A DNA stretch of 64,000 bases from Mustelus asterias (Eukaryota). How positions within the stretch are numbered: the first letter of the stretch is position 1; each line of letters opens with the position of its first letter. Location: the NCBI RefSeq assembly GCF_964213995.1, contig NW_027590121.1:2604001-2668000 (forward strand), in the 5' to 3' direction. This document shows positions 2,958 to 60,277 of the stretch, one piece after another. A program made the position numbers and the translations under genes. The notes below the pieces were generated by a model, which saw nothing but the letters and a program-made list of their open reading frames with translations, did not search any database and was not told where the DNA came from.

Positions 2958-3116
2958 AAAAGTAAAATACTGCGGATGCTGGAATCTGAAACAAAAAGAG
3001 AAAATGCTGGAAAATCTCAGCAGGTCTGACAGCATCTGTGGAGAGAGAATAGAGCCAATGTTTCGAATCTGGATGACCCTTTATAAGAGCTCTCGAAAGG
3101 TTGGCTCTATTCTCTC
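2958..3116 (-). mobile_element. Short Penelope-type terminal fragment (second family) with a decayed hammerhead and an inverted end
   Basis: Homologous to 38590..38690 and 51010..51140. gagagaatagagccaa (3043-3058) is inverted at 3101-3116. Confidence 0.55.
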
Positions 3117-3478
3117 ATAATTTTAATCGATAAGTTTCTTGTTCTTAGTTTCCAAATGGCAGGTAAGACCTGTCCGGTCCCCACTCTGATTTTTCACTGG
3201 CCATGCTTGGGTAAGATTATAACCATTAGAATCTACTCTCAGAGGTCTGCTTTTCAGTCCAGTGCTACTTGGAGTATACCGTCACTTCACCAACTATCAG
3301 GTCACAAGTCCCTCACAGTTCTTATCACAAATTTATGATAAAATAATTTAAACATGCCTGAGAACACTTCTTAACTTCTTAGTCAGCTACCTACCCCCGT
3401 TTGTTGATTAGTCAGACCCCATTTTTACAGATTCCAGGTTTCTCAGCCGCTGAACACCAGCTGTTCCTGCAATAATCT

Positions 3479-3801
3479 CATAGAATCTCTACAGTGCAGA
3501 AGGAGGCCATTCGGCCCATCAAGTCTGCACCAACCACAATCCCACCAACGCTATCTCCATTACCCCATTCATTTACGCTAGCTAGTCCCCCTGACACAAA
3601 GGGGCAATTTAGCATGGCCAATCCACCTAACCTGCACTTCTTTGTACTGTGCGAGGAAACCGGAGCACCCGGAGGAAACCTACACAGACACTTGAAGAAT
3701 GTGCAAACTCTACACAGACAGTGACCCAAGGTGGGAATCAAACCCGGGTCCCTGGTGCTGTGAGCCAGCAGTGCTAACGACTGTACCACCGTGCCGCCCC
3801 A
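3479..3801 (-). mobile_element. HE1-type tRNA-derived V-SINE
   Basis: tRNA-like head with A/B boxes, V-domain (gggtttcctccgggtgctccggtttcctc), and LINE-derived tail (gggccgaatggcctccttctgcactgtag..tctatga). Confidence 0.88.
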
Positions 3802-4292
3802 GTTTAATTTCAGCTCATTCTGAGTAAATATTCTCACCAGGTCCTCTGTTGGAGCCCTGCGAAGCAGCTTTAATAGTCCGTGATTGCAGAAACTGAGCAG
3901 TCACAGGAATGTGGTCAAGATAGTCCAGTCCCACAATGCCTCACATTCAATCTGCTGTCCTTCAATTATAACAGAATATGTGGCTGTATGTAGCTGCCTC
4001 GGCCGTGGTCAACCCCAACACTGCCTTCCTGAACTGCTACAATGCCTGAGGTGTAAGTACACCCACAGTGCTGTTAGGGAGGGATTTCCAGCTACACATT
4101 CCAGACTTTCACTGGACTGTAGGTGGATATCAGATTGATATATTCCATTCAACCACTCCCAAGGTGAGTTATTCCAATTCCTTTATTGTCCAGGACAATA
4201 TATTCTCAATATCTTTAAAACAGAAATTAAACATTCCCATTTGATTTCAGGTATTAACATATTCTGTTCGATTGATCTTTATTGTCAATGTC

Positions 4293-4582
4293 AGGCTGGG
4301 GTTGTTCCCCTTGGAGCAAAGGAGGTTGAAGGGAGATTTGGTAGAGGTGGACAAGATTCTGACAGGTTTAGATAAGGTGGACCAAGAAAAGCTGTTCCCA
4401 TTCGCTGAAGGGACAAGGATGAGGAGGTCACAGATTTATGGTTTTGGGTCAGAGATGCCGGAGGGGATGTGAGGAAGAATATTTTGATGCAGCGAATGGT
4501 AATGATCTGGAACTCGCTGCCTACGAGGGTGGAGGAAGTGGAGACAATAAACAATTACAAAGGAAATTGGATGGGCATTTGA
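4293..4582 (+). mobile_element. CR1/HER1 LINE 3' fragment
   Basis: Translates to RLGLFPLEQRRLKGDLVEVDKILTGLDKVD, the CR1-clade ORF2 C-terminus. Confidence 0.8.
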
Positions 4583-4841
4583 GAGGGTTTCAAACAAAAA
4601 TAGTGACTCTAAATCTCCCAACACCCTGTCACTCTGTGATCCGTGTGAAATCTGAAACCGGGGGTATTCGCAACAAGACTCAAAGAGCATCAGTCCACTG
4701 GAGGCAAAGTCATGAGACCGGGCAGTCCAGCAGAAAGAAACCCTCCGTCCCTCCCCAAAGACCAACTGTGAGAATGAACAAAATGCAGTCCTGGATGTAA
4801 TTGAGAGCAGAAACAATAACAGCAGAATCCAACCCCTGGAA

Positions 4842-6188
4842 TCACTCGTGAACTTGCTGGTGTCTCCGCAGCCGGGATGAAAGACTGAATCTTTTCTCAC
4901 ACACAGAGCAGCTGAATGGTCTCTCCCAAGTGTGAACTCGCTGGTGTATCCGCAGGTGGGAGGACCGAGTGAATCCCTTCCCACATTGAGAGCAGGTGAA
5001 CGGCCTCTCCCCAGTGTGAACTCGCTGGTGTCTCAGCAGCCTGGATGAATCACAGAATCCCTTCCCACACTGACAGCAGGTGAATGGCCTCTCCCCAGTG
5101 TGAACTCGTTGGTGTATCTGCAGGCTGGATAATCGAGTAAATCCCTTCCCACACTGAGGGCAGGTGAACGGTCTCTCCCCAGTGTGAACTCGCTGGTGTG
5201 TCAGCAAGCTGGATGACTGAGTGAATCCCTTCCCACACTGAGAGCAGGTGAATGGCCTCTCCCCAGTGTGAACTCGCTGATGTATCTGCAGCTGGGATGA
5301 CTGAGTGAATCCCTCCCCACATTGAGAGCAGGTGAATGGTCTCTCCCCAGTGTGAACTCGCTGGTGTATCTGCAGGTGGGATGACTGAGTGAATCCCTTC
5401 CCACACTGAGAGCAGGTGAATGGCCTCTCCCCAGTGTGAACTCGCTGGTGTCTCCGCAGGTGGGATGACAGAGTGAATCCCTTCCCACACTGAGAGCAGG
5501 TGAATGGCCTCTCTCCAGTGTGAACTCGCTGGTGTGCCCGCAGGTTGAATGACTGAGTGAATCCCTTCCCACACTGAGGGCAGGTGAATGGCCTCTCCCC
5601 AGTGTGAACTCGCTGGTGTGTCCGCAGGTTGGATAATCGGGTAAATCCCTTGCCACACTGAGAGCAGGTGAACGGTCTCTCCCCAGTGTGAACTCGCTGG
5701 TGTGCCTGCAGGCTGGATGACTGAGTGAATCCCTTCCCACACTGAGAGCAGGTGAATGGCCTCTCCCCAGTGTGAACTCGCTGATGTATCTGCAGCTGGG
5801 ATGACTGAGTGAATCCCTCCCCACATTGAGAGCAGGTGAATGGCCTCTCCCCAGTGTGAACTCGCTGGTGTATCTGCAGGTGGGATGACTGAGTGAATCC
5901 CTCCCCACATTGAGAGCAGGTGAATGGCCTCTCCCCAGTGTGAACTCGCTGGTGTCTCCGCAGGTGGGATGAGTGAGTGAATCCCTTCCCACACTGAGAG
6001 CAGGTGAACGGTCTCTCCCCAGTGTGAACTCGCTGGTGTGACTGCAGGTTGAATGACCGAGTGAATCCCTTCCCACACTGAGAGCAGGTGAATGGCCTCT
6101 CCCCAATGTGGCTGCGCTGATGAGCTTCCAGCAGAGATGGGGCTCTGTACCTCTTCCCACAGTCCCCACATTTCGACGGTTTCTCCAT
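4842..6188 (-). CDS. C2H2 zinc-finger protein A, 448 aa, 16 fingers, no effector domain visible
   Basis: Open tandem CX2CX12HX3H array with TGERPF linkers. First ATG is in accATGG context at 6188 (the ORF-track start at 6224 is TTG). Acceptor ttttatag|G at 6540/6539. Confidence 0.92.
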
Positions 6189-6539
6189 GGTGTAGGTGTC
6201 CTTGCTGCTCTCTTTGGTGGACAATCAGTTGAAGCCTCGTCCACACACACAACACGTGTACAGTCTCTCCCCGCTGTGAATGGTGTGATATTTATTCAGG
6301 CTGTGTGACTGGTTAAAGCTCTTTAGTCAGTGCACTGGTAGACTCTCACTCAAGTGTGGCCGTGTGTTGGTGCTTTTCCAGTCACACTGATGTTTGAAAT
6401 CTTTTCAAATCAACAGACTGTACAATCATTTCTCCTTCTAGATTCAAAGTCCGATGATATTCAGCTCCCAAGGAATATGACTCTGTCAGATCTCGACGTG
6501 ATGTTTGAGATTTCGGCCTGTGATTCCTCTTTCAATATC

Positions 6540-6790
6540 CTATAAAACGAGTTTACAAAAGTCATCAGTGTCAGTACAGGATAGAAATTCAGAACAGACA
6601 ATTCTAGTTTCTATGGAACATTCTTTCCTCTCTCATTCCCCAAAAAGCTGTGAATCTCCATCCCACACACTCTCCCTCCATTCTCACTCTGCTGTATCTA
6701 ATATTCACCCACCCAATTCTCCTGAAGGTGCTGATTGAGGCTGATTGACAGATCCATGCTCACTGCTTCCTGTCCTGGACACAGAGACCA
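6540..6790 (-). repeat. Conserved pre-acceptor intron module of the ZNF cassette (copies also at 9955-10178, 18128-18560 interrupted, 39318-39556, 57950-58191; diverged at 31290-31444)
   Basis: Near-identical ~200-bp block gaagcagtgagcatggatctgtcaatcagcc...tactgac...ttttacag placed directly before the finger exons. Confidence 0.85.
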
Positions 6791-7862
6791 GAACAAATAG
6801 GAGCTGCAGTCGGCCATTTGGCTCATCGAGTCTTTTAAACTATTCAATGAGATAATTCGTTCATCTACCTCAGCATCATTCTCCCCACACTAAACCCATA
6901 TCCCTTGATATCTTCAATATCTAGAAATCAATCAATCTCTCTCTTGAAAATAGTTGATGACTGAGGCTTCACTGTCCTCAGGGGTTGAGAATTCCAAAGC
7001 TTTCCCACATCCTTGAGTGAAGAAATCCCCCCACATCTTAGCTTTTGCTCCATCTTCTTGTCTGTTCCCCATAACCCTTGACACCATTGTCAGTCAAAGA
7101 TCTGTCTAACTGGAATATATTCAATGATCCTCAGCCTCCACTGGTCCCTGTGGAAGAGAAATCCAAAAGACTAACAACCCTCTGAGGGAAGAGATGTCTG
7201 GAAATATATAACGTAGCTACAGTTCTATATTACAAGATATTCAGATCCCAAGGAATATGACTCTTTCTCGATGTGACGGTTGAGATTTTTGCCTGTGATT
7301 CCTCATTCAAAATCCTGTGAAATGAGTTTGCAAAAGTCATCACAGTCAGTATAGGATAGAAATTCAGAGCAGACAATTCTAGTTTCTATGGAATGTTGTT
7401 TCCTATTTCATTCCCAAAATGTTGTAACTCTCCATCCATATCTATGGATTCTATTTAAAAATGAAAGTGGATGGGCACTTGAAGGAAATAAACTTTCAGG
7501 AGAATGGGGATATCGAGTGGGAATGGGACTGGAATGTTATCCAGAGAGTCAGCATGGACTTGAGTTACCGAATGGATTCCTTCTGTGCTGTAATGACTTT
7601 ATGACTGGAAATGTATAACATCGCTGCAGCATTATATTATAATGCAAGAAATAATAAATGTATTTTACTACAGAAACATAAATAATATATCTAATCTGGG
7701 TACCTTATAATAACACTCGACATATCTCTGTCCTATATTAATTTACTGTCCCCTTAAATGTCAGCCATCTCCTGGGGAAAGCTGCCCTTTAATGTGAACA
7801 TGAGGAAAAAGACCATCCTTTTCGACAGACAAATAAATGTGTCAAGCTGAGGGAGCAAAGGA

Positions 7863-8619: not shown

Positions 8620-8679
8620 GTTAATTGCTTGCACTTAATTGAAACAGGAGGAAGTTTGAATCTGCCTGAAGCTCAATCG

Positions 8680-9100
8680 TCAATCACACAAGGCCCGCGC
8701 TCTGATTGGCTGGAGGACCAGAATCCTTCCGGTCCTCCAACTCTTCCCATTGGCCAGAGCTGGTGAGGAGCAGTGAATCAAAAGTGCGCATGTGTGGGTT
8801 TTTAGGAGGAATGCGCATGTGCGAGTGTGGGGCGGGGCCCGGGACAAAGCCGGCGCACTGACCACTGTCTGTCCGGATCTTCCAGCCTTTTCCAATGGAC
8901 AACATCTCAGCGCGGCTGGAGGGCAAAGTCCCGCCCACCCCCACGAGGGGCTCCGCCCCTCATTGTCTGTCTGCAGGGGATTGACCAATGGGAACTCTGG
9001 AGGACCGGAAGGACTCTGGTTCAGCTGCTCATTCCTGCCCAGCAAAACTGCTGCTGCTCTCTGTCTGAATGAAGATTGAGCTTTCGACAGACTCAAGGAA
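8680..9100. promoter_or_regulatory. Bidirectional CpG-rich promoter between ZNF-A (-) and ZNF-B (+)
   Basis: Mirror-image ccaatggga..ggaggaccggaagga modules at about 8690-8755 (-) and 8981-9020 (+), tgcgcatg (NRF1-like) motifs, GC boxes, and a donor GTGAGT on the - strand at about 8498. Confidence 0.7.
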
Positions 9101-9558: not shown

Positions 9559-10537
9559 AGTGAATCCAGAGAGGGTGCAGACTCTGGAAAGGTTGGCCCA
9601 GGTCTCTCTCCCTCTCTTAAAGACATTGACGTTCTTTGCTCCCTCAGCTTGACACATTGATTTGCTTGGTTAAGAGGATGTTCTCTTTCCTAATGTTCAG
9701 AATTAAAGGGCTGCTTTCCCCAGGAGATGGCTGACATTTAAGGGGACAGTAAATTAATATAGGACAGAGATATATCTTGTGATTTTTTTTGTCACAGATT
9801 TGATAAATTATTTATGGTTCTGCAATGAAGTAATTTATTCTTATTTATATTCTTGTAATATTGTTCTGTACCTCTGTTATATACTTCCAGTTATGGAGTC
9901 ATTACAGCAAAGGGGTCCTTTCAGCCACACACGTCCATCCTGACTCTTGGTCAAAGTGAAGCAGTGAACATGGATCTGTCAATCAGCCTCAATCAGCACC
10001 TTCAGGAGAATTGGGAGGGTGAGTATTAGATACAGCAGAGTGAGAATGGAGGGAGAGTGTGTGGGATGGAGATTCACAGGAATGAGAGAGGAAAGAATGT
10101 TCCATAGAAACTAGAATTGTCTGTTCTGAATTTCTATCCTGTACTGACACTGATGCATTTTGTAAACTCCTTTTACAGGATATCTGAAGGTGATGATTTG
10201 CAGGCAGAAATATCAAACCAAATGTCACACTAAGATCTCACAAATTCACTCTATTTATCGGAACCTGAATATCATCAGTCTTTCAATTTAGAAGGATAAA
10301 TATTTGTCTGTTCTGTCTTTTTCAGGAGATCTTCAATATCAGTGTGCCTGGAAAAGCACTGAAACACACACACACCTGAGTGAGCGTGTTCCAGTGCACG
10401 GACTGTGGAAAGAGCTTTAACACAGTCTGAAAAAACATTGCATCATTCACATCAGGGAGAGAAATTAATTGTGTTCTGTGTGTGGACGAGGCTTCAGCAG
10501 ATCGTGAAACCAGCAGAGTCACAAGGACACCTGCACC

Positions 10538-11212
10538 ATGGAGAAACGGTGGAAATGTGGGGACTGTGGGAAGGGATTCAATTACCCATCAAAGCTGGAA
10601 ACTCATCGACGCAGTCACACTGGGGAGAGACCATTCACCTGCTCTCAGTATGGGAAGGGATTTAGTCAATTCTCCCTTCTGCTTACACACCAGCGAGTTC
10701 ACACCGGGGAGAGGCCGTTCACCTGTTCGGAGTGTGGGAAGGGATTCAGCGATTTACCCACACTGCGGAGACACCAGCGAGTTCACACTGGGGAGAGACC
10801 ATTCACCTGCCCTGTTTGTGGAAATGTTTTCAGCAATTCATCCACACTACTGACACACCAGCGAGTTCACACTGGAGACAGACCGTTCAATTGCTCTGAC
10901 TGTGGAAAGGGATTCATTCAGTCATCCCACTTGCTGACACACCAGCGGGTCCACAGAGGGGAAAAGCCATTCACCTGCTCTGAGTGTGGGAGAGGATTCA
11001 GTGATTCATCAAACCTGCTGACACACCAGCGAGTTCACACTGAGAAGAAGCCATTCAACTGCTCTGTGTGTGGAAGGGGATTCAAACATTCAGCAACCGT
11101 GATGAAACACCAGCGAGTTCACACCAGGGAGAGGCCGTTCATCTGCTCCATGTGTGGGAAGGGATTCACATTGTTCTGCAACTTGCAGAGACACCAGCGA
11201 GTTCACAAATGA
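10538..11212 (+). CDS. C2H2 zinc-finger protein B, 224 aa, 8 fingers (finger 2 has C->Y)
   Basis: accATGG start, tandem fingers, acceptor ttttacag|G at 10178/10179, AATAAA at about 11626. Confidence 0.9.
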
Positions 11213-16404: not shown

Positions 16405-17778
16405 TCAGGCAGAGCATTTAAAGGGGCTCTCCTTGGGGTGAGTGGCTTTGTGTTTCTGCAGGCTGGATGACTGAGTGAATCCCTTCCCACACACAGAGCA
16501 GGGGAATGGTCTCTCCCCAGTGTGAACTCGCTGATGTTCCCACAGGCTGGATGACCTTTTAAACCTCTTTGTGCAGTGAGAGCAGCTGAACGGTCTCTCC
16601 TCAGTGTGAATGCGCTGGTGGGACACCAGGTCCTGAGAGCTTTTGAATCCGCTCCCACAGTCAGAGCATTTAAACGGTCTCTCATTAGTGTGAGTGACTT
16701 TGTGTCTGCGCAGGTGGGATGAAGTAGTGAATCCCTTCCCACACACCGAGCAGGTGAATGGTCTCTCCCCGGTGTGAACTCGATGGTGTTTCAGCAGGTT
16801 GTATGATGTTCTAAATCTCTTTGTGCAGAGAGAGCAGCTGAACGGTCTCTCCTCAGTGTGAATGCGCTGGTGGGACATCAGATCCTGAGAGCTTTTGAAG
16901 CCATTCCCACAGTCAGAGCATTTAAATGGTCGCTCACTGGTGTGAGTGGCTTTGTGTTTCTGCAAGCTGCATGACTGAGTGAATCCCTTCTCACACACAG
17001 AGCAGGTGAATGGCCTCTCCCCGGTGTGAACTCGCTGGTGAATCTGCAGATTGGATGAAGTTCTAAATCTCATTGAGCAGTGAGAGCAGCTGAACGGTCT
17101 CTCCTCAGTGTGAATGCGCTGGTGAATCATCAGTTCCCGAGAACTTTTGAAACCACTCCCACAGTCAGAGCATTTAAATGGTCTCTCATTGGTGTGAGAG
17201 AGATTGTGTTTCTGCAGGCTGGATAACTGAGCGAATCCCTTCCCACACACAGAGCAGGTGAACGGCCTCTCCCCAGTGTGAACTCCCTGGTGTGTTTGTA
17301 AATGGGATGACTGAGTGAATCCCTTCCCGCACACAGAGCAGGTGAATGGTCTCTCCCCAGTGTGAACTCGCTGGTGTATCTTCAGGTTGGATGAAGTTCT
17401 AAATCTCTTTGTGCAGTGAGAGCAGCTGAACGGTCTCTCCTCAATGTGAGCGCGCTGGTGGGACAGCAGTTCCCCAGAGCTTTTGAAACCGCTCCCACAG
17501 TCAGAGTATTTAAATGGTCTCTCATTGGTGTGAGTGAGATTGTGTTTCTGCAGGCTGGATAACTGACTGAATCCCTTCCCACACACACAGCAGGTGAATG
17601 GCCTCTCCCCAGTGTGAACTCGTTGGTGTCTCTGCAGATTAGGTAAGTCAGTGAATCCCTTCCCACACACAGAGCAGGTGAACGGCCTCTCCCCAGTGTG
17701 ACTGCGTTGATGAATTTCCAGTAGAGATGGGAACCTGAATCCCTTCCCACATTTCCCACATTTCCACGGTTTCTCCAT
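16405..17778 (-). CDS. C2H2 zinc-finger protein C, 457 aa, 16 fingers (finger 4 has C->Y); decayed fingers continue past the stop to about 16030
   Basis: accATGG at 17778, three-finger periodic array, acceptor cttacag|G at 18128/18127. Confidence 0.9.
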   Translation of the reverse strand: MEKPWKCGKCGKGFRFPSLLEIHQRSHTGERPFTCSVCGKGFTDLPNLQRHQRVHTGERPFTCCVCGKGFSQLSSLQKHNLTHTNERPFKYSDCGSGFKSSGELLSHQRAHIEERPFSCSHCTKRFRTSSNLKIHQRVHTGERPFTCSVCGKGFTQSSHLQTHQGVHTGERPFTCSVCGKGFAQLSSLQKHNLSHTNERPFKCSDCGSGFKSSRELMIHQRIHTEERPFSCSHCSMRFRTSSNLQIHQRVHTGERPFTCSVCEKGFTQSCSLQKHKATHTSERPFKCSDCGNGFKSSQDLMSHQRIHTEERPFSCSLCTKRFRTSYNLLKHHRVHTGERPFTCSVCGKGFTTSSHLRRHKVTHTNERPFKCSDCGSGFKSSQDLVSHQRIHTEERPFSCSHCTKRFKRSSSLWEHQRVHTGERPFPCSVCGKGFTQSSSLQKHKATHPKESPFKCSA

Positions 17779-19077
17779 GGTTCGGGTGTCCTTGTGACTC
17801 TCCAGGTTAAACAATCAGTTAAATCTCACACAGAACACAGGTACAGTCTCTCCCGCTGTGAATGCTGCGATGTATTTTCAGGCTGTGTAACTGGTTAAAG
17901 CTCTTTCCACACTCAGTGCACTGGAACACTCTCACTCGGGTGTGTGTATCTCAGTGCATTCCTAGTCACAGCGATGTTTACAATCTTTTGAAGCCAAGAG
18001 GCCAAACAAACATTTCTCCTGCTAGCTTCAAAAGCCGATGATATTCAGGTCCCAAGAAATCAAGTCACTCTGTCAGATCTCGATGTGATGTTGGAGATTT
18101 CTGTCTGATTTCTCCTTGTCTAATATCCTGTAAGTCAATTTAGAAAAAAAGAAATCGCAATTCAGAATATGATCGAAATTCAAATCTACATTTCTAGTTT
18201 ATGGAGCATTCATTAAAGACACAGTCATGGAGCATTAAACTTGCCCAGCAGGGCCTCCCGTATCAGCACACAGGCAGCTGCTTTGTGAGACTGCCAGCAG
18301 TACAGACAAGTCAGAGATAAGGGTGTCCTCAGAAGTGGGATTCATTGTGAAAGCTCAGGGACGGTTGATAAGATGCAGCAATTCTGTGATTCTAATGAAC
18401 GTTCTTTCCTCTCCCATTCCCCAAAAGACGTGAGCCTCCATCCCACACACTCTCCCTCCATTCTCACTCTGCTGTATCTAATATTCACCCTCCCAATTCT
18501 CCTGAAGGTGCTGATTGAGGCTGATTGACAGATCCATGCTCACTGCTTCCTGTCCAGCACAGAAATCAGAACAAATAGGAGCTGCAGTCAGCATTCGGCC
18601 CATCGAGTCTGCTCAACCATTCATTCAGATTATTGGTTGATCTACCTCTGCATTATTTTCCCCACACTGTCCCCCATATACATCGATATCTTCAATATCT
18701 AGAAACCTATCAATCCCTCTCTTGAAAATTCTTGATGACTGAGGCTCTATAGTCCTCTGGGGTAGAGAATCCAAAACATCACCACATCCTTGAGTGAAGA
18801 AATCCTTCCTCATCTGAGCTTTCTCTCCATTTTCCAGCCTGTTCCCAATAATTATTGACTCCCTTGTCATTCAAAAACTGTCTAACTCATCCTTGAATAC
18901 ATTCAATCCCTCCACTGGTCCCTATGGAAGAGAAATCTTGATACTAACAATTCTCTGAGGGAAGAGATTGTTGGAAATATATAATATAGCTGTCGTCCAA
19001 AATTACACAGCCAGATATAATAAGTGTATTTTATTACAGAGCTATAAATAATATATCTAATCTGTACCATATAACAG

Positions 19078-24496: not shown

Positions 24497-25087
24497 TCAC
24501 TTGTGAATTTGCTGGTGTCTCAACAGACGTTGTGACTGAGTGAACCCCTCCCCACACAATGAGCAGGTGAACGGTCTCCCCCCGGTGTGAACTCGCCGAT
24601 GTGACAGCAGTTGGGATGACCAAGGGAATCCCTTCCCACACACGGAGCAGGTGAACGGCTTCTCCCCAGTGTGAGTGTGTTGGTGTTTATTGAGGTCGGT
24701 TGACTGCCTGAAACTTTCTCCACAGGTGGTGCACCTGAATGGATCCTCCTTCGTGTGCATTCGGTGGTGTGACTGGATAGCGAATATCTGAGTGAATCCC
24801 ATCCCACACACAAAGCAAATGAATGGTTTGGCACCCGTGTGAATCCGCTGGTGTTCAGTGAGAAGGGATGAAGTCTGGAATTTCTCTCCACAGGTTGTGC
24901 AGCTGAATGGCTTCTTCACAGCGTGAAGCCGCTGGTGTAACCGAAGGGCAGATGACTGAGTGAATCTCCTCTCACACACGGAACAGCTGAATGGCTTCTC
25001 CCCAGTGTGAACGCGTCGATGGATTTCCAGCCGGGATGAAGAATTGTATCCTTTACCACAGTCCTCACATTTCCATGATTTCTCCAT
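24497..25087 (-). CDS. C2H2 zinc-finger protein D, 196 aa, 7 fingers
   Basis: accATGG start, 7 intact and mutually divergent fingers, acceptor tttccag|G at 25426/25425. Confidence 0.9.
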   Translation of the reverse strand: MEKSWKCEDCGKGYNSSSRLEIHRRVHTGEKPFSCSVCERRFTQSSALRLHQRLHAVKKPFSCTTCGEKFQTSSLLTEHQRIHTGAKPFICFVCGMGFTQIFAIQSHHRMHTKEDPFRCTTCGESFRQSTDLNKHQHTHTGEKPFTCSVCGKGFPWSSQLLSHRRVHTGGRPFTCSLCGEGFTQSQRLLRHQQIHK

Positions 25088-25842
25088 GGTGCCAGTTTCC
25101 TTGTCCCTCTCCAGGTTGCAGAATCAGTTGAACACACACAGAGTACGTGTAGTTACTCCCCGCTGCGAGCGGTCTGATGTTTTTACAGGCTGTTTAACGA
25201 GTTAAAGATCTTTCACGGTTAGTGCTCTGCAGCACTCTCATTCCAGGATGTGTTTTGATGCTTTTCCTGTCACACTGATGTTTGAAATGGTCTCACAGAC
25301 AAACATTGCTCCTTCCAAATTCAAACACTGATGATGATGGCTGTGGTGAACTGAGTGATTCTGTCAGATCATTCTGTGATGTTCAGTTTGAGCTTACTGT
25401 CCATAAATCCACACACTCTAATTTCCTGGAAAAAGGAGTTTACAAAATTTATAAATAGAGAAATTCTGAACAGAATTACATTTTTCATGATACATCTGTC
25501 TTTATTTGTGCCTTGAAAACAGTGACTCCTCATCCCACACACTCTTCCCAGGCTAACTGTCTGTCCCATATTTAACAGGATTAATCTGTATTTGAGTCCA
25601 CTGTCCCAGGCTTTCTCATTGCATACAACCCCATCCCTCACTGTTTCCATGTTCCCACAACTCTGGCAGACGCCACTTCCACACAGCCTGACCTCAGTTC
25701 TGGCAAGACCCATCCACCATTCATTTGGACTCCAGGGCAGGCTGTACCATAATTTTCACCATGAGAGTTGATCAGCCTGCTAAATCCATCACACCATCTT
25801 CACAATTCCTTTCCTTACTTGCAGATTCCACCCCCTCCCTCT

Positions 25843-26363: not shown

Positions 26364-26519
26364 AGAATGGTGAATGGGTCTTGCCAGAACTGAGGTCAGG
26401 CTGTGTGAGGCTGTCTTCTCCCAGAGTTGTGGGAACATACAAACAGTGAGGGATGGGGTTGTGGTCGGTGCAGACTCACTGGGCCGAATGGTCTCCTTCT
26501 ACACTGTAGGGATTCGATG

Positions 26520-31212: not shown

Positions 31213-31804
31213 CCACATCATGAACTGAACCCAGACAGAGGAGAGGGAGGGAGAAAACTGGGAGTGGAGGAAAAAAATGGTGGAGATGGGTTTGGATTTC
31301 AGCCCAGGGAGGAGGGAGAGTGTGTGGGACGGGGATTTACAGATTTGGGGGAACAAGAGAGGAAAAAATGTTCCAGAGAAACTGGAATTGTTCAGAATTT
31401 TTATCCAGTTCTGACAGTGATGACTTTTCTAAACTTTTTTACAGGATATTCGAAGTGAAGGAACGGCAGTCGGAAAACTCAAACCGGACATCACATCTGA
31501 CAAAGTTATTCAGTTCCTTAGGAGCTGAATATCATCGGCCTTTGAATGTGGAAGGAGAAATATTTGTCTGTTCTGCCTGTGGGCAAAGAAATTTAACATC
31601 AGTGTGACCGGAAAAGTATCGGGACAAACCCACACCCGAGTGAGAGTGTTCCAGCGAACTGACTGTGGAAAGATCTTTAACCAGTTACACAGCCTGAAGA
31701 AACATAACACTTTTCACAGCAGGGTGAAACTATATGTATGTTGTGTGTGTGGACCAGGCTTTAACTGATCATCCAACTTGGAGAAGCACAAGGACACCAG
31801 CACC

Positions 31805-33129
31805 ATGGAGAAACCGTGGGAATGTGTGGATTGTGGGAAGGGATTCGGTTTCCCATCACAATTGGAAGTTCATCGGCGCAGTCACACTGGGGAGAGACCG
31901 TTCACCTGCTCCGTCTGTGGGAAGGGATTCACCCATTCATACAATCTTCTGACTCACCAACGGGTTCACACTGGGGAGAGGCCGTTCACCTGCCCTGTGT
32001 GTGGGAAGGGATTCACTCGCTCATCCCACATTGTGACACACCAACTTGTTCACACTGATGAGAAACTGTTTACATGTTCTGACTGTGAGAAGAGTTTTAA
32101 ATGCAAAAAAGATCTGCTGACACACCAACGAATTCACACTGGGGAGAGACCGTTCACCTGCTCTGTGTGTGGGAAAGGATTCATTCAGTCATCCCACTTG
32201 CAGACACATCAACTTGTTCACTCTGATAACAAACTTTTTAATTGTTCTGACTGTGCGAAGAGCTTTAAAAACAAAAAGGATCTGCTGACGCACCAATATA
32301 CTCACACTGGGGAGAGGCCATTCACCTGCTGTGTGTGTGGGAAGGGATTCAGCTGCCCATCTGCCCTACTGAACCACCAGAGAATTCACACTGGGGAGAG
32401 GCCCTTGTGGGGGTAGGGCCTGGGTGGGATTGTGGTCGGTGCAGACTCGATGGGCCGAATGGCCTCCTTCTGCACTGTAGGGTTTCTATGATTTCTATGA
32501 CCTGCTCAGACTGTGGGAAGGGATTTATTAATTCATCCAACCTTCTGATACACCAGCAGTTCCACACAGGGGATCGACCGTTCACCTGCTCTGAATGTGG
32601 GAAGGGATTCACCCATTCATACAACCTTCTGACACACCAGCAGGTTCACAGTGAGGAGAGGCCATTCACTTGCTCCGTGTGTGGGAAGGGATTCACCCGT
32701 TCATACAACCTTCTGACACACCAGCAGGTTCACAGTGAGGAAAGGCCATTCACTTGCTCCGTTTGTGGGAAGGGATTCACTCGTTCATCCAACTTATTGA
32801 ATCACCAGCGAGTTCACACTGGGGAAAGGCCGTTCACCTGCTCCACATGTGGGAAGGGATTCAGTCAGTCATCCAACGTGCTGACACATCAGAGAATTCA
32901 CAGTGGGGAGAGGCCATTTACCTGCTCTGTCTGTGGGAAGGGATTTTCTCATTTATCTTATCTTCTGAAACACCAGCGAGTTCACACTGGGGAGAGGCCG
33001 TTCACCTGTAATGTCTGTGGAAAGGGATTTATTCAGTCATCCCACCTGCTAACACACCGGCGAGTTCACAAGGGACTGCAAGGTTTGGATTCTACACTTA
33101 TTGATGCTGTTAATCATATCCAGGTCTGA
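31805..33129 (+). CDS. C2H2 zinc-finger gene E, 14 fingers (7+7), interrupted by a SINE tail at about 32405-32500; truncated, split or splice-rescued
   Basis: accATGG at 31805. Seven fingers end in HTGERPLWG* at 32416; seven more run in another frame from about 32500 to 33129. Acceptor at 31444/31445. Confidence 0.8.
32405..32500 (+). mobile_element. HE1 SINE 3' tail inserted in a finger linker
   Basis: Matches the tail of 19996..20327 (tgtgggggtagggcctgggtgggattg...gggtttctatga); no target-site duplication. Confidence 0.93.
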
Positions 33130-39162: not shown

Positions 39163-39905
39163 CACCCACGTTGGCAGCAAGTTCAATATCATCATCAATC
39201 ACAACCCCCCCTGTATCTTCACTCACTGAAACAATCCAGTTAAAACATTCTTAGTCGAGAATGTAGCCATATTTCTTTTGGACTGGCAGCCTGCATGGAG
39301 ACTTTCAGCTCTCTATGTCCAGGACAGGAAGCAGTGAGCGTGGATCTGTCAATCAGCCTCAATCAGCACCTTCAGGAGAATTGGGAGGGTGAATATTAGA
39401 TACAGCAGAGTGAGAATGGAGGGAGAGTGTGTGGGATGGAGATTTACAGCTTTTGGGGAATGAGAGAGGAAAGAATGTTCCATAGAAACTAGAATTGTCT
39501 GTTCTGAATTTCTATCCTGTACTGACACTGATGAATTTTGTAAATTGTTTTCACAGGATATTAGAGGAATCACACCGATAAATCTTAACGATCACATCTC
39601 GATCTGACAGAGTCACTCGATTCCTTGGAAACTAAATATCCTTAGCCTCTGAATGGGAAGGAGAAATGTTTGACCGGTCTGTCGACTGCAAGATTTTAAG
39701 CAGCAGTGTGACTGGAAAAACACCAGGACACAAACACACACCCGAGTGAGAGTGTTCCAGTGCATTGAGTGTGGAAAGAGCTTTAACCAGTTACACAGCC
39801 TGAAAAAAACATCGCTGCATTCACAGTGGGGAGAGACTGTACCCGTGTTCTGTGTGGACAAGGCTTCAAATGATTGACCTCCAATGATACAAGGAGACCG
39901 ACAAT

Positions 39906-40640
39906 ATGGAAAAACCGTGGAAATGTGAAGACTGTGGGAAGAGATACAAAGCGCCCTCTCTACTGGAAGTTCATCGGCGCAGCCACACTGGGGAGAGGCC
40001 GTTCGCCTGCTGGGTGTGTGGGAAGGGATTCACTGATTCATCCACTCTGCAGAGACACCAGCAAGTTCACACTGGTGAGAGTGCATTCACCTGCTGTCAG
40101 TGTGGGAAGGGATTTACTCAGATATCAAGCCTGCAGACACACCAGCGAGTTCACACTGGGGAGAGGCCATTCACCTGCTCTCAGTGTGGGAAGGGATTCA
40201 GTAAGTCATCCAACCTACAGAAACACCAGCGTGTTCACACAGGCGAGAGGCCATTCAGCTGCTCTGCATGTGGGAAAAGATTCACTCAGTTATCTCACCT
40301 GCAGACACACCAGCGAGTTCACACTGGGGAGAGACCATTCACTTGCTCTCAGTGTGGGAAGGGATTCACTCAGTTGTACACCCTGCAGACACACCAGCAA
40401 GTTCACACTGGGGAGAGGCCATTCACCTGCTCTCAGTGTGGAACGGGATTCACTCAGTTATCTAATCTGCGGAGACACCAGCGAGTTCACTCTGGAGAGA
40501 GGCCGTTCACCTGCCCTGTGTGTGGGAAGGGATTCACTCGGTTACCCATCCTGCAATCACACCAGCAAGTTCACACCGGGAGAGACTGTTCATCTGCTCT
40601 CAGTGTGGGAAGGGATTCTGTGATTCATCCACCCTGCTGA
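39906..40640 (+). CDS. C2H2 zinc-finger protein G, 244 aa, 8 fingers; a 1-nt deletion at about 40578 puts the ninth finger out of frame
   Basis: ATG at 39906, acceptor tcacag|G at 39556/39557; linker caccgggagagactg lacks one G. Confidence 0.85.
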
Positions 40641-44933: not shown

Positions 44934-47900
44934 GGTCAAAGCCTCTCTCTTTTCTCCTTCCCGTTTAACTAAGGGGTTGTGTGGAATATTCCATTCAGGG
45001 GGAGGTGGTGGGAATGTCTCTGGCCGAGTAATGCAGAGACGCAGCAAAGGATCCGGGGACAGGCAGCTGGTGGGATTTGAATTCAGTGAATCAATCTGGA
45101 ATTATATAAAGTTAGTGTCAGAAACGGTGACCATGAAACTTTCATAGATTGTTGTAAAAACCTGTCCAGTTCACCCTATTAATGCTCCCTATTAGGGAAG
45201 GAAATCTGCCATCCTTACCCGGTCTGGCCTACATGTGAATCCAGACCCACACAGCGATGTGGGTGACTCTTAACTGTCCCTCTGAAATGGCTGAGCAAGT
45301 CACTCCATTCAGGGGCAATTAGGAGCTGAGCAACGTGTGCTGGGGCTTTGCCAGCAGTGTCCACATCCCAGGAAAGAATAAAGAATATTCCACAGAAAGT
45401 GATGGGTGATTTGAAATGAATTGAAAGTAGGTCAGGAGGTGCTCGTATCGTCCAGAGCTGCTTTTCAATGGATCCTCCTGTTTAAAATAAAAACACATCA
45501 GTGTGCCCCTTTCCCAGACACACTGACCTTGGAATATCACAATGCTGTTTTTAAACATTCCTTTGTTAAAGAATCAGTCATTTAGAATTGTGAAACAGAC
45601 AGAAATTAAATGTTCCGTTTTTCCTGGGATCCTCCTGTGCCTGGCACCGGTGTCCTGAACAAGGTTATTAACATTCTCTGGGTTAAAGGTTCCTCCTGGT
45701 TCTTGCTGTCTGTTGTGTCCTTTGTCACAGTCGGTACCAGGACATTTCTATTGAAAGGTTGTTAAGAAATTCCAGTGAATTCCAGCCCCTTGTGTAACGT
45801 TCCATTTGGTGTGCGTCAGATTCAGAGATGTCCACGTGTGTGTGAAAAGGGTTCTGGGTAAGGGTTTTAACCCTTCTTTCCCCGTTAGTAACAATGAGCC
45901 CTGTATTCAATTCTAAAGTATAAAGTCCTCATTAGATATCAATTCTACCTGTTATCTACATTTCACCAACCAGTCTATATTTTCATCACAGGACTGCAGT
46001 GGGAGCACCGTCAACATCTTACTGACTGGATCGATTTTATCGAGGAGGTGACGAAGGTGATCGATGAGGATAGAGCAGTGGATGTTGTGAACATGGATTT
46101 TAGTGAGGCTTTCGACAAGGTCCCTCATGGTCGGCTCATCCAGAAGATTAAGATGCATGGGATTCACGGTGACTTGGCCACTTGGATTCAGAATTGACTT
46201 GCCCATAGAAGTCAGAGAATAGCGGTGGAGGGTGTTTTTCTGACTGGAGGTCCATGACTAGTGGTGTTCCACAGGGATCCATACTGGGACCTGCGCTATT
46301 TGTGACAGATATAAATGACTTGGATGAAAACGTGGATGGGTGGGTTAGTAAGCTTGCAGACGACACAAAGCTAGATGGAGTTGTAGATAATGTCGAAGGT
46401 TGTCAAAGGATACAGTGGGATGTAGATCAGCTGCAGATATGAGCGGAGAAATGGCAGATGGATTTCAATCCGGGCAAGTGTGAGGTGCTGCACTTTGGGA
46501 GATCAAATATTAAGGATAAGTATACAGTTAATGTACAGAGGGATCTTGGGGTTCAAGTCCATAGCTTCCTGAAATTAATCACACAAATATTTAGTCGGTA
46601 AAGAAGGCATATGGCATACTTGCCTTTATTGAGTACAAGAGTCAGCATGCCATGTTGCAGCTTTATAAAACTTTGTTTGGGCCGCGCTTAGAATATTGCG
46701 ATCAGTTCTGGTCGCCACATTACAGAAAGGATGCAGAGGTTTTGATGAGGGTGCAGAAGAGGTTTCCCAGGATGCTGCCTGGATTGGAGGGTGTGAGCGA
46801 CTGACAAACGAGGGTTGTTTTCTCGATAGCGGTGGAGGGTGAGGGGAGACCTGATAGCAGTCTATAAAATGAGAGACATAGAATCTTTTCCCTCAGAGTT
46901 GATATGTCGAATACCAGGGAGCATGCACTTAAGGTGAGACGGGGAAAGTTCAAAGGAGATGTGAGAGGTAAGGTTTTTTACACAGAGAGTGGTAGGTGTC
47001 TGGAATGCGCTGCTAGGAGTGGGGGTGGAGGCAGATACGATAGGGGCATTTAAGGAGGTTTTAAATAAGCACATGAATATGCAAGGAATAGAGGAATATG
47101 GACCAAGGGCAGGCAGAAAGGAATAGTTTAATTTGGCATCATGTTCGACACAACATGGTGGGCTGAAGGGTCTGTTCCTGTGCTGTGCTGTTCTACGTTC
47201 TATTTGTGATCTCCATTTAGAAAAAGGAAATAGAGACACTGGAGAAGGGGCAAGAAAGATTCACAAGAATAATCCCAGAACTGTAATCACTTGTGAACTC
47301 ACTGGTGTTTCACCAAGTTTGTTGAGTGAATCCCTTCCCAGTCAGAGCAGGTGACCAGCCTCTGCCTGGTGTGAACTCACTGGTAGGACATTAGTTCCCG
47401 AGAGCTTTTGAAGCCACGCCCACATTTAAAGGGTCTCTCCTGGGTGTGATGATGTTGTGTCTGGGCAGGCTGGATAACTGAGTAAATCCTTTCGCACACA
47501 CCAAGCAGGTGAATGGTTTCTCCCCGGTGTGAACTCACTGGTGTTTCAGCAGTGTTGATGATATTCTAAACCTCCTTGAAAAGTGAGAGCAGCTGAACGG
47601 CCTCTCCCCGGTGTGAATGTGCTCGGGGATCATCAGTTCCTGAGAGCTTTTGAAGCCGGCCTCTCAGGCAGAGCATTTAAAGGGTCTCTCCTTGGAGTGA
47701 GCGGCTTTGTGTTTCTGCAGGCTGGTTGACTGAGTGAATCCCTTCCCACACACAGAGCAGGTGAACGGTCTCTCCCCGGTGTGAACTCGCTGATGTTCCC
47801 ACAGGCTGGATGACCTTTTAAACCTCTTTGTGCAGTGAGAGCAGCTGAACGGTCTGTCCTCAGTGTGAATGCGCTGGTGGGACACCAGGTCCTGAGAGCT

Positions 47901-49336
47901 TTTGAATCCGCTCCCACAGTCAGAGCATTTAAACGGTCTCTCATTAGTGTGAGTGACTTTGTGTCTGCGCAGGTGGGATGAAGTAGTGAATCCCTTCCCA
48001 CACACAGAGCAGGTGAACGGTCTCTCTCCAGTGTGAACTTGCCGGTGCACTCGCAGGTTGGATGATGTTCTAAACCTCTTTGTGCAGTGAGAGCAGCTGA
48101 ACGGTCTCTCCTCAGTGTGAATGCGCTGGTGGGACATCAGATCCTGAGAGTCTTTGAAGCCACTCCCACAGTCAGAGCATTTAAATGGTCTCTCATTGGT
48201 GTGAGTGGCTTTGTGTTTCTGCAAGCTGGATGAAGTTGTGAATCCCTTCCCACACACAGAGCAGGTGAACGGCCTTTCCCCGGTGTGAACCCGCTGGTGT
48301 ATCTGCAGGTTGGATGAAGTTCTAAACCTCTTTGTGCAGTGAGAGCAGCTGAACGGTCTCTCCTCAGTGTGAATGCGCTGGTGGTCCCTAAGTACCTGAG
48401 AGCTTTTGAATCTGCTCCCACAGTCAGAGCATTTAAATGGTCTCTCATTGGTGTGAGTGGCTTTGTGTTTCTGCAGGCTGGATAACTGAATGAATCCCTT
48501 CCCACACACAGAGCAGGTGAATGGTCTCTCCCCAGTGTGAACTCGCTGGTGTATCTGCAGGTTGGATGAAGTTCTAAATGTCTTTGTGCAGTGAGAGCAG
48601 CTGAACGGTCTCTCCTCAGTGTGAATGCGCTGGTGGGACATCAGATACTGAGAGCTTTTATAACCACTCCCACAATCACAGCATTTAAATGGTCTCTCAT
48701 TGGTGTGAGTGAGATTGTGTTTCTGCAGGCTGGAACACTGAGTGAATCCCTTCCCACACACAGAGCAGGTGAACGGCCTCTCCCCAGTGTGACTGCGTTT
48801 ATGAATTTCCAGCTCAGATGGGAACCCGAATCTCTTCCCACAGTCCCCACATTTGCACGGTTTCTCCATGGTGCGGGTGTCCTTGTGACTCTCTAGGTTA
48901 AACAATCAGTTAAATCTCACACAGAACACAGGTACAGTCTCTCCCCGCTGTGAATGCTGCGATGCATTTTCAGGCTGTGTAACTGGTTAAAGCTCTTTCC
49001 ACACTCAGTGCACTGGAACACTCTCACTCGGGTGTGTGTGTCTCAATGCATTTCTGGTCACAGCGATGTTTACAATCTTTTGAACCCAACAGGCCAAACA
49101 AACATTTCTCCTGCTAGATTCAAAGGTCGATGATATTCAGGTCCCAAGAAATCGAGTCACTCTGTCAGATCTCGATGTGATGTTGGAGATTTCTGTCTGA
49201 TTTCTCCTTGTCTAATATCCTGTAAGTCAATTTAGAAAAAAAATCGCAATTCAGAATACGATCGAAATTCAAATCTACATTTCTAGTTTCTATGGAGCAT
49301 TCATTAAAAACACAGTCATGGAGCATTAAACTTGCC
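44934..49336. repeat. Segmental duplication copy 2 (contains a DeuSINE at about 44999-45386 and CR1 at about 46030-47205)
   Basis: Colinear with 13672..18245. Confidence 0.93.
47664..48869 (-). CDS. C2H2 zinc-finger protein F, 401 aa, 14 fingers; recent paralog of C
   Basis: accATGG at 48869, the same KCSA* terminus as C, acceptor at 49220/49219. Confidence 0.9.
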
Positions 49337-52344: not shown

Positions 52345-52640
52345 TCATAGAATCCCTACAGTGCAGAAGGAGGCCTTTCAGACCACCCCACCCAGGCTAT
52401 TCCCGTAACCCCACATATTTACCCCGCTAATCTCCCTAACCTACACATCTTGGGACAGAAAGGGGCAACCACCTAACCTGAACATCTTTGGAGAGTGGGA
52501 GGAAACTGGAGCGCCCGGAGGAAACCCACACAGACATGAGGAGAATGTGCAAACTCCATACAGACAGGTAACCAAGGCTACAATCGAACCCAGGTCCCTG
52601 GTGCTGTGAGGCAGGAGTACTAACCACTCTGCCATCCATG
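52345..52640 (-). mobile_element. HE1-type V-SINE ending about 25 nt before the ZNF-H acceptor
   Basis: Head, V-domain and tail on the reverse strand; acceptor ttgcag|G at 52666/52667. Confidence 0.82.
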
Positions 52641-52849
52641 TAATTCTTTGTAAACTTACTTTGCAGGAAATTGAAGAGAAGGATCTGCAGTCTGGATGAT
52701 CGAATCTCACGTCTGACAGAGTCAATCGGTTCATCGGGATCTGAAAATTTGTGCATCTGAAGGGATTTAATTGACCATCTCAGTTGGAAACTGGTGAGAA
52801 TCCGTTCATCTGCTCCTCCTGTGGGAAGGGATTGAAACAGCTGGAAAAC

Positions 52850-54211
52850 ATGCTGACACGACAGCGAACTCGCAATAGTGAGAGTTCATTCACCTGCTCC
52901 GTGTGTGGGAAGAAATTCATGTGTTCGTCCAACCTGCTGGCTCACCAACTCGATCACATTGATCAGAGGCCTCTTCAAAGCTCTGACTCTGGGGACAGTG
53001 TCGAGACATCTGAGGAACAGGCCCAACACCAGCTCCTTCACACTGACGAGAGACCGTTCAGCTGCTCCCACTGCGGGAAGAGGTTCAGCCAGTCCTCCCG
53101 CCTTGCAGAGCACCAGCTCCTTCACACACACGAGAGACCGTTCAGCTGCTCTCACTGTGGGGAGTCGTTCAGCGACTCAGTGCATCTCACTGAGCACCAA
53201 CAAGTTCACACCAAGGACAGGCCATTCAGCTGCTCCCAGTGTGGGAAGAGATTCACTCAGTCCTCCCACTGCACCGTTCACCAACAGGTTCATTCTCAGA
53301 AGAGACATTTTAAATGTTTTAAATGTGAGAAGACCTTCAAAAGAAGGATTAGTCTGCTGAGACACCAGGACACTCACACCGGGGAGAAGCCGTACCCCTG
53401 TTCTGTTTGTGGGAAGAGATTCGCTCATTCATCTCATCGTCTGACACACAAGCGAGTTCACACTGGGGAGAGGCCTTTCCTCTGCTCCCTGTGTGGGAAG
53501 AGATTCACTCGATTTTCACACCTTTTGACACACAAGAGTATTCACACTGGAGGGAAACCATTCACCTCCTCAATGTGTAGAAAGGAAGAAGTTCAATCAA
53601 CTGACCAGCTGACACACCAGCGAGTTCACACTGGGGAGAAGCTGTTCACCTGCTCGGTGTGTGGGAAGGAATTCACACGGTCTCACTATCTTCTGAGGCA
53701 CCGGCGAGTTCACACTGGGGAGAGGCCATTCCTCTGCTCCGTGTGTGGGAAGATGTTTCCTCGTTCATCCCAGCTTGTGATACACGAGCGTGTTCACACA
53801 GGGGAGAGGCCTTACGCTTGCCCTGTGTGCGGGAAAGCATTTGCTTCTTTACAACACCTGCTGAAACATCGGCCTGTTCACACCGGGGAGAGGGCATTCA
53901 TCTGCTCCGAGTGTGGGAAGGCTTTCACGGAGTCATCCAGCCTCCGGACACACCGCCGCACTCACACAGGGGAGAAGCTATTCTCTTGCTCCATTTGTGG
54001 CAAGAGATTCACTCAGTCGTCTGACCTGCTGAGACACCAATACATTCACACAGGGGACAGGCCGTTCACCTGCTCTGTGTGTGGGAAGGGATTCATTGAT
54101 TCATCCTGCCTGCAGACACACCAGCGAGTTCACACCGGGGAGAGACCGTTCACCTGCTCTGTGTGTGGGAAGGGATACACTCAGGTATCCAGCCTGCAGA
54201 GACACCAGTGA
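52850..54211 (+). CDS. Divergent C2H2 zinc-finger gene H: about 13 intact fingers, nonsense codon at 54209, three more finger units to 54475; start codon uncertain
   Basis: The open frame 52784..54211 begins with TTG; the first in-frame ATG is at about 52850. cag TGA gtt replaces cag CGA gtt. Confidence 0.72.
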   Translation: MLTRQRTRNSESSFTCSVCGKKFMCSSNLLAHQLDHIDQRPLQSSDSGDSVETSEEQAQHQLLHTDERPFSCSHCGKRFSQSSRLAEHQLLHTHERPFSCSHCGESFSDSVHLTEHQQVHTKDRPFSCSQCGKRFTQSSHCTVHQQVHSQKRHFKCFKCEKTFKRRISLLRHQDTHTGEKPYPCSVCGKRFAHSSHRLTHKRVHTGERPFLCSLCGKRFTRFSHLLTHKSIHTGGKPFTSSMCRKEEVQSTDQLTHQRVHTGEKLFTCSVCGKEFTRSHYLLRHRRVHTGERPFLCSVCGKMFPRSSQLVIHERVHTGERPYACPVCGKAFASLQHLLKHRPVHTGERAFICSECGKAFTESSSLRTHRRTHTGEKLFSCSICGKRFTQSSDLLRHQYIHTGDRPFTCSVCGKGFIDSSCLQTHQRVHTGERPFTCSVCGKGYTQVSSLQRHQ

Positions 54212-57780: not shown

Positions 57781-58538
57781 ACTTTCTTTTCTCCCCCTTT
57801 CAATTTATTTTCTCATTCTGGGGAAAATTGGGGACTTGCAGCAACTGAAGGGAATGAAGTGAATCCAGTCTGTACATTCCACACATTTTTACTCCAGTAA
57901 TGTAGACATTTATCTGTCTGGCAGCCTGCATGGAGGTTTTCAGCTCTCTGTGTCCAGGACAGGAAGCAGTGAGCATGGATCTGTCAATCAGCCTCAATCA
58001 GCACCTTCAGGAGAATTGGGAGGGTGAATATTAGATACAGCGGAGTGAGAATGGAGGGAGAGTGTGTGGGATGGAGATTCACAGCTTTTGGAGAATGAGG
58101 GAGGAAAGAATGTTCCATAGAAACTAGAACTGTCTGTTCTGAATTTCTAACCTGTACTGACAGTGATGAATTTAATAAATTCCTTTTACAGAATATCAGA
58201 AGGTGAGGATTTACAGACAGTAATCTCAAAGCAAATGTCACATCAATATCTGACAGAGTCATTCAATTCATCATGTCCTGAACATCATGAGCCTTTGTAT
58301 CTAGAAGGATAAATATTTCTCTGTTCTTTTTGCTTCTGGAGATTTTAAACATCAGCGTGACTGAGAATTTACCAAGTCTCACGCACACACCCGAGTGAGA
58401 GTGTTCCAGTGCACTGACTCTGGAAAGAGCTTTAACCAGGGACACAGTCTGAAAAAAACATTGCGGCATTCACAGTGGGGAGAGACTGTACCCGTGTTCT
58501 GTGTGAGATTTAACTGATTGTTTAACCTGGAGAGTCAC

Positions 58539-59312
58539 ATGGACACCCGAACCATAGAGAAACCGTGGAAATGTGGGGACTGTGGGAAGGGATTCAGGTT
58601 CCCATCTGAGCTGGAAATTCATCGACGCAGTCACACTGGGGAGCGGCCGTTCACCTGCTCTGTGTGTGGGAAGGGATTCTATGATTCATCCAACCTGCAT
58701 ACACACCAATGAATTCACACGGGGAAGTGACCATTCACCTGTTCTGATTGTGGTACTGGATTTACTCAGTTATGTCATCTGCAGACACACCAGCAAATTC
58801 ACACTGCGGAGAGACCGTTTACCTGTCCTGTGTGTGGGAAGGGATTCACTGACTTATCCAGCCTGCGGATACACCAGCGAGTACATTCCGGGGAGAGGCC
58901 GTTCAACTGTCCTGTGTGTGGGGAAGGATTCACTTGGTTATCCAGCATGCGCAGACACAGAGTCACTCACAGCAATGAGAGACCCTTTAAATGCTCTGAA
59001 TGTGGGAGCGACTTCAAAAGCTCTCAGGTTCTGATGTCCCACCAGCGCATTCACACTGAGGAGAGACCGTTCAGTTGCTCTCACTGCTCAAAGAGATTTA
59101 GAATGTCATCCTATCTGCGGGTACACCAGCGAGATCACACTGGGGAGAAACAATTCACTTGCTCTGCCTGTGGAAAGGGATTCACTCAGTTAACCAATCT
59201 GCAGAGACACCAGCGAGTTCATACTGGGGAGAGGCTATTCACCTGCACCGTATGTGGGAACGGGTTCACTCAGTCATCCCACCTGCAGACACACCAGCGA
59301 GTTCACAAGTGA
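58539..59312 (+). pseudogene. ZNF-I, 9-finger gene with the family start codon lost (ATG->ATA at 58554) and two in-frame stops (58710, 58728)
   Basis: accATAgag, caa TGA att and aag TGA cca; the downstream fingers stay in the same frame. Confidence 0.82.
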
Positions 59313-60270: not shown

Positions 60271-60277
60271 CGAAATC

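Follow-up and report, generated by a model that had tools for sequence, protein, structure and literature searches.

Our analysis suggests that a very large family of shark C2H2 zinc-finger genes stems from a founder whose first three fingers held two stop codons, with an ATG where the third linker has its glycine, and that the tandem genes of this family probably make finger-only proteins. The window, that is, the whole 64-kb stretch of DNA that was analysed (G000:C89:2604001-2668000, part of a 3.68-Gb assembly), contains ten tandem C2H2 arrays, and sharks are the source of the closest annotated proteins. Three fossil fingers, F1 to F3, lie in a leader between a predicted splice acceptor and the start codon; we call stop 1 the upstream TGA (SV*LEKH, in F1) and stop 2 the TGA at -39 (in F3). 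An earlier note on the window had proposed finger-only DNA binders, and our data agree with it in that the leaders are closed and the frames are fingers end to end, an argument drawn from sequence.

Closed leaders in the window and across the genome

Features of the window, with strand:
4842..6188 (-): gene A coding frame, 448 aa, 16 C2H2 fingers, ATG 6186-6188 in ACCATGG; stop two residues past the last His
6189..6539 (-): gene A fossil leader, 351 nt, a 41-codon spacer remnant plus F1-F3, frameshifted, recognised by homology to intact paralogs
6225..6227 (-): gene A stop 2, TGA at -39, helix position -1 of F3
6327..6390 (-): slowest-changing leader segment, a potential 13-pair hairpin containing stop 1
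6382..6384 (-): gene A stop 1, TGA in F1, where the two intact paralogs have TGG (Trp)
6427..6429 (-): gene A upstream ATG, before F1, family position -245; opens a short uORF
6540..6570 (-): predicted splice acceptor, with a T-rich tract, AG and a CTGAC branch-like word
8651..8950 (no strand): CpG island that separates A from B, which stand head to head
10179..11212 (+): gene B, leader 10179-10537, 224 aa, 7 strict fingers; TGC at stop 1, AGA at -39, TGA at -33 (10505-10507)
16405..18127 (-): gene C, TGA 17966-17968 and 17815-17817, ATG 17778, 457 aa, 15 fingers
24497..25425 (-): gene D, decayed leader, TGA 25270-25272 and 25124-25126, ATG 25087, 196 aa, 7 fingers
31445..33129 (+): gene E, TGA 31605-31607 and 31766-31768, ATG 31805, 203 aa, 7 fingers; frame break after these, then 7 more fingers into an open C-terminal tail
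39557..40640 (+): gene G, TGA 39709-39711, ATG 39906, 244 aa, 8 fingers; aligned TGA 39871-39873, out of frame, at -35
47664..49219 (-): gene F, TGA 49058-49060 and 48906-48908, ATG 48869, 401 aa, 14 fingers
52620..54211 (+): gene H, acceptor and spacer remnant as in the other genes, fingers different, without a TMEKP start
58192..59312 (+): gene I, TGA 58358-58360 and 58515-58517, ATA at 58554, stops within the array

The arrays are of Kruppel type (C-x2-C-x12-H-x3-H fingers, TGE[KR]P linkers, PF00096), gene A reaching 8e-107 with PF00096. The CpG island is likely a promoter common to A and B, gene I is likely a pseudogene, and gene H reads as a third start type. H-type genes also occur at L043, L109 and C71 near 10.316 Mb, with a possible start within a decayed finger. 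A second, truncated copy of acceptor and spacer lies at 7240-7400 (-), 780 bases upstream of gene A's acceptor, and the decayed array J at 60092-60970 (+) has CR1-like sequence in place of a leader. Going by their motifs, positions 1-1500 (-) presumably hold a Penelope-like reverse transcriptase with a GIY-YIG remnant, and 34822-35691 (+) a CR1-like reverse transcriptase fragment.

A promoter and first-exon module recurs at 30560-30860 (+), 49340-49680 (-) and 26500-26800 (-) of the window. It stands upstream of 18 (sense) and 10 (antisense) of 95 genes and is 95-100% identical between genes with strongly different leaders, which suggests that promoters were recently swapped or copied between genes.

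The earlier note had placed a TGA exactly 39 nt upstream of the start in A, C, D, E, F and I, a displaced TGA in G and a stop 33 nt upstream in B, and every one of these positions was confirmed, the TGA of G being shifted by a 4-nt deletion. Stop 1 is TGA in 7/8 window leaders, the exception being B. The three decayed fingers that it described in all eight leaders are clear in the family majority, but every individual copy has frameshifts in them, most heavily D. All three frames read from the acceptor stop within 53 codons in 8/8 window leaders, with the start at about codon 117; a coding exon spliced upstream would thus terminate before the array, as had been proposed.

Genome-wide, the 25-letter start word has 798 exact copies, of which 631 carry TGA at -39 and 30 more TAA or TAG (661/798 with any stop). 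Since TGA makes up 3.1% of leader positions, its presence at -39 is not due to chance. Stop 1 is TGA in 722/788 places with exact stop-1 flanks. An unbiased sample of 47 full copies, from tiles chosen without any leader word, gave TGA at stop 1 in 42, TGA at stop 2 in 39 and TAA in 3, and ATG in 39; the -39 stop is common in the family, not fixed as had been claimed. None of the 47 is open back to the acceptor, and fully open leaders were found in two genes among the best 150 protein matches. The exact words are present in 13 and 12 of the 47 copies, which scales up to an estimated 2,800 or so loci (95% about 1,800-5,200), a figure probably inflated by haplotype duplicates, as identical pairs occur.

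Our leader samples (59, later 100 copies) required that most of the leader model be matched, with a score >150, and strongly deleted leaders were excluded. In the first sample 22/80 arrays had no leader-model match: 5 lay at tile edges, 7 were of the sister type described below, 4 of H type, and 6 had deleted or interrupted leaders that retain the start word or its remnant. A subfamily with the start MGKPWKC, found at L091:7478 (-) and G000:C71 near 10.327 Mb (+), has lost F2-F3 via a deletion that joined the end of F1 to the similar end of F3, so that stop 1 adjoins the start.

The leader behaves as non-coding sequence. Frameshifting indels occur in 85/100 copies in the spacer and F1 and in 92/100 in F2-F3, compared with 17/100 in fingers 4-6; alignment noise raises these counts somewhat and leaves the contrast unaffected. 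In the leader, simple dN/dS lies at 0.66-0.98, shifted frames give similar values, and there is no codon periodicity; in fingers 4-6 it is 0.35-0.47, and shifted frames there reach 0.7-1.6. We rejected selection on the -39 stop, which changes no more slowly than its surroundings: its three bases take 7, 11 and 5 tree steps, the leader median being 7, and stop and sense interchange about 14 times on a tree of 99 copies. The stop thus appears inherited from the founder without special conservation.

One part of the leader, from -206 to -106, does change slowly (2.6 steps/site, 2.1-3.0; the intron farther out has 5.1, and fourfold sites of finger 4 have 6.2), again without codon periodicity; gene conversion or the choice of copies by leader match could account for this rate. 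A consensus fold of the whole leader gave no structure, and 120-nt windows gave no folding excess. The 13-pair hairpin from -206 to -143, which holds stop 1, has a mean z of about -1.3, with 5-6/20 copies below -2, almost no double changes and no compensatory changes, and the coding C1 gene folds likewise; with this marginal z, the lack of compensation and its presence in a coding gene, we did not accept it as a selected structure.

Intact paralogs and the origin of the start codon

Two single-copy genes, traced via variant codons at stop 1 and a protein search, have the whole leader open:
G000:C1:169139898-169142817 (near 169.14 Mb; L144): C1 intact gene, TGG at stop 1, CAA at stop 2, GGG at the ATG; 12 fingers
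G000:C857:4330-5587 (L216): C857 intact gene, TGG at stop 1, GGC at stop 2, GGC at the ATG; 11 strict fingers

The best 150 protein matches include six stop-free ones, of which these two are truly intact; the four others (C71:20.2 Mb, C2706, C112, C183) were discarded, being closed or frameshifted farther on. F1-F3 of the two genes agree in 54/84 residues, with a pN of 0.19 against a pS of 0.80, which marks them as real fingers, past and present, and the fourth finger of the intact genes matches the first finger of the closed family. In a tree rooted on C857, C1 branches off outside a clade comprising the remaining 118 sequences (local support 0.93), and copies lacking a stop nest among closed copies; the basal nodes of the tree give no order of events within the family. 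From the codons in these two paralogs (stop 2 falls on Gln in C1 and on Gly in C857) and from their place outside the closed clade, stop 1 appears to be one change from Trp, stop 2 to occupy a former Gln or Arg codon and the ATG to occupy the linker Gly. L159 (G000:C23 near 12.398 Mb) retains stop 1 and the ATG, has CAA at -39 and groups weakly with the sister family (support 0.89), as an intermediate or a recombinant.

Both intact paralogs read Gly at the position of the ATG, in line with the proposal that the start codon arose from a linker Gly. GGG to ATG takes two changes and the sister family has AGG, AAG and GAG at this site, so the direct precursor of the ATG was not necessarily Gly; the exact Gly-linker form of the start word has 0 copies genome-wide. 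The accATGG context described earlier holds in gene A, and ATG in 39/47 unbiased copies, gene I beginning instead with ATA. Where letters are present, A stands at -3 in 46/46 copies and G at +4 in 45/45, and both positions show zero tree changes, where 6% of leader columns are unchanged; the start context is under constraint. An upstream ATG before F1 is found in 31/47 copies, mostly opening 11-15 codons, and an upstream frame overruns the main ATG in 17/47, which could lower translation.

For the C1 gene, the predicted structure runs from a CpG island and an ATG through 38 coding bases to a phase-2 GTGAG donor; an intron of 1,753 bases then ends at the family acceptor, and the joined frame has 389 residues and no stop. 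Its N-terminus (13 + 41 residues) has no Pfam match and no atlas match above 0.8, so the ancestor likewise shows no known effector. The spacer is weakly kept between C1 and C857 (11/37 residues; pN 0.45, pS 0.77). Truncation would have cost the family three fingers along with about 40 residues of spacer. The view that the family expanded from an ancestor whose N-terminus was cut off gains from the sense codons that the intact paralogs read at both stops; what was lost includes no recognisable effector. Upstream of C857 a simple repeat runs to the contig start, with no second copy, and an upstream exon would lie beyond the contig; the gene has very GC-rich third positions and kilobases of simple repeat in front. 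No orthologue of the intact genes turned up in the protein collections of other species, where matches were generic (18/20 candidates) or below 0.9, and one search was swamped by long finger arrays.

The MEGKS sister family, with 440 exact copies, has the acceptor and spacer in common with the TMEKP family; F1-F2 are deleted and F3 is open. Its start corresponds to the Met just before F1 in the intact C1 gene, and in-frame stops precede this Met in most of the 34 copies examined. It thus resembles the TMEKP family in being closed by in-frame stops and, as far as its frames tell, finger-only. MEGKS relatives are annotated in Cetorhinus, Scyliorhinus, Stegostoma and Heterodontus, and the literature searched does not describe them as a family. 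Annotated proteins with the TMEKP start or its leader occur in Heterodontus, Chiloscyllium, Carcharodon, Cetorhinus and Scyliorhinus, genera that together cover all four galeomorph orders, which implies that the start word is roughly 200 million years old or more. The few ray proteins examined begin differently.

Maintenance of the arrays and competing explanations

The fingers downstream of the start are under purifying selection. Ten disjoint close pairs show 0 changes in 992 non-synonymous sites of the Cys/His codons (pS 0.028), and the DNA-contact codons have a pN/pS of 0.61 (95% 0.17-1.14), with no excess of amino-acid change and no positive selection in these ten pairs. The 812 fingers compared contain 351 distinct contact words, and the arrays appear both maintained and varied. 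About a third of copies are broken: 8/47 have no ATG and 16/47 have fewer than five in-frame fingers. The C-terminus has been trimmed too. A stop lies within two residues of the last His in 66/92 ATG frames with four or more fingers, and the bases past it still read as a common tail that is open in few copies, E among them, so that this tail resembles a second fossil at the other end. The shared tail spans about 20 codons, as at window 4780-4844 (-) and 33060-33129 (+), and is open in the second frame of E and in L146.

KRAB models gave 0 matches in the assembly (76 candidates scored, in a search without a positive control), and the KRAB domain has been reported as lost in cartilaginous fishes in the whale shark paper (PMC8455134). 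SCAN models gave none on C71, C87, C89, C90 or the C12/C23 cluster stretches; the 146 matches in 150 scored of 604 candidates are scattered. Such scattered SCAN matches would presumably fit retroelement gag. No Pfam match over cut-off, KRAB, SCAN and BTB included, was obtained in 14 promoter-region frames of the window or in the two intact-gene spacers. The frames are closed behind the acceptor, so a KRAB-A exon could not be joined to the array in frame there as in a KRAB-ZNF gene, and with 0/47 copies open neither could a FiNZ exon through the conserved acceptor. Nor did a shared coding first exon emerge: a YY1-like ATG word stands sense-upstream of only 2/93 genes.

An effector exon might still enter through a cryptic acceptor that lies past the -39 stop, or be joined to the C-terminus, and the proteins would then not be finger-only. 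Four NCBI models (P0009, P0010, P0151, P0157; Heterodontus, Carcharodon) do join upstream sequence past the stop, AGs are available at -21, -19, -12 and +6 in 75-82 of 99 copies, and, as FiNZ illustrates (PMC10547256), a short effector can escape Pfam. These AGs are, however, GAG or AAG behind purine-rich sequence with a T fraction of 0.09-0.31, whereas the main acceptor, whose AG is present in 95/99 copies, is CAG in 93/95 with T 0.54, and they look like poor acceptors. The four models differ in their junction points and have unrelated N-termini, as do the 17 annotated N-terminal stretches of related proteins, among which no similarity was found; moreover, A-3 and G+4 are invariant and the promoter modules contain no conserved coding frame. 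We consider such an exon unlikely. Contigs give a weak hint that leader and array are transcribed: in four runs from four studies, guessed to be RNA though none is labelled so, contigs with 80% likeness cover both. Among the pieces listed, those from 3/4 runs span the ATG together with leader sequence upstream of -39, and one piece ends within two bases of the acceptor. The hint is weak because these contigs are possibly DNA and only part of the matches is listed; the pieces listed show no acceptor junction and no difference at the stops.

Recoding of the TGAs (by readthrough, selenocysteine or A-to-I editing to Trp), with the leader translated as fingers, is very improbable, even though both stops and the usual C-terminal stop are all TGA and stop 1 derives from TGG inside a possible hairpin. 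The frameshifts in 85-92/100 leaders largely refute it; in addition, stop 2 is free to change (20 codon changes on the tree, 6 with TAA), and the majority sequence of the family has Arg in place of the last His of F3. Most of the family could also be non-functional, a cassette that spreads neutrally or selfishly with leader and start carried along. The broken copies just counted, many near-identical short-contig copies that are maybe haplotype duplicates, the lack of positive selection and promoter modules that are alike despite divergent leaders would all fit, yet the unchanged Cys/His codons, a dN/dS in fingers 4-6 that is lost in shifted frames as expected and the same start word annotated in four shark orders speak against it, and we judge it quite unlikely.

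The preferred reading, a truncated founder with a linker-born start, can be put as a sequence of steps. After the founder gained its two stops and its ATG, transcription would begin at a CpG-island promoter, and a first exon would be spliced to the conserved acceptor. Ribosomes would pass the short upstream frames or reinitiate, and then start at the strong ACCATGG. Tandem and segmental duplication would have multiplied the unit in a birth-and-death process. By analogy with KRAB and FiNZ genes, the proteins may bind varied DNA, plausibly repeats or transposons, and may act by occupying sites or through partners recruited by the fingers themselves; that transposons are the targets is a tentative idea, somewhat doubtful on present grounds.

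Comparison with known zinc-finger systems

In the literature searched, with subscription journals outside the search, we found no description of this family and no paper with the start word MEKPWKC, and the family is not described in the accessible parts of PMC11603059 and PMC13047888. New here are the genome-wide counts, the two intact paralogs, the unselected -39 stop and the sister-family comparison. The leader serves as a lineage marker and, together with the intact paralogs, offers a rare before-and-after view of a linker-born start codon that preceded a very large expansion. Should the proteins act without an effector, they would provide a direct test of whether DNA binding alone, or the binding of partners through the fingers, can drive ZNF expansions. 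Automatic gene models that add N-terminal exons to genes of this family are probably wrong. A broader idea, which we hold to be rather unlikely, is that the largest part of the ZNF repertoire of galeomorph sharks, some thousands of genes, is effector-less and goes back to one ancestral gene type cut at either end, with starts gained at least twice and dead fingers kept as a constrained RNA or DNA control element; through its bare finger arrays vertebrates would have, next to KRAB and FiNZ, a third way of recognising transposon sequences on a mass scale.

The KRAB and SCAN clusters of lobe-finned fish and tetrapods share with the shark family dense tandem C2H2 arrays, TGEKP-type linkers and one last exon, as well as CpG-island and head-to-head promoters and birth-and-death turnover. 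Unlike them, the shark family has no KRAB match, no exon that could be joined via the conserved acceptor and a start in a finger linker.

The supplement of PMC10547256, in the rows listed, gives 1,106-3,586 zinc-finger frames in five shark assemblies; these counts are among the highest in animals. Sharks lack KRAB, and the literature searched gives no account of what their many ZNF genes are. The main text of that paper contains no "shark", "cartilaginous" or "chondrich". In cyprinid fish, FiNZ-ZNF genes carry a conserved acidic coding exon of 28 residues, show positive selection and repress transposons (Wells et al. 2023, PMC10547256). The contact residues of the shark family, in the ten close pairs compared, have a pN/pS of 0.61 (0.17-1.14). 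As described there, FiNZ-ZNF genes resemble the shark family in having expanded within one lineage to hundreds or thousands of clustered genes that lack KRAB, and in a two-part plan with the array in the second exon. They differ in that the N-terminus of the shark family is closed by stops.
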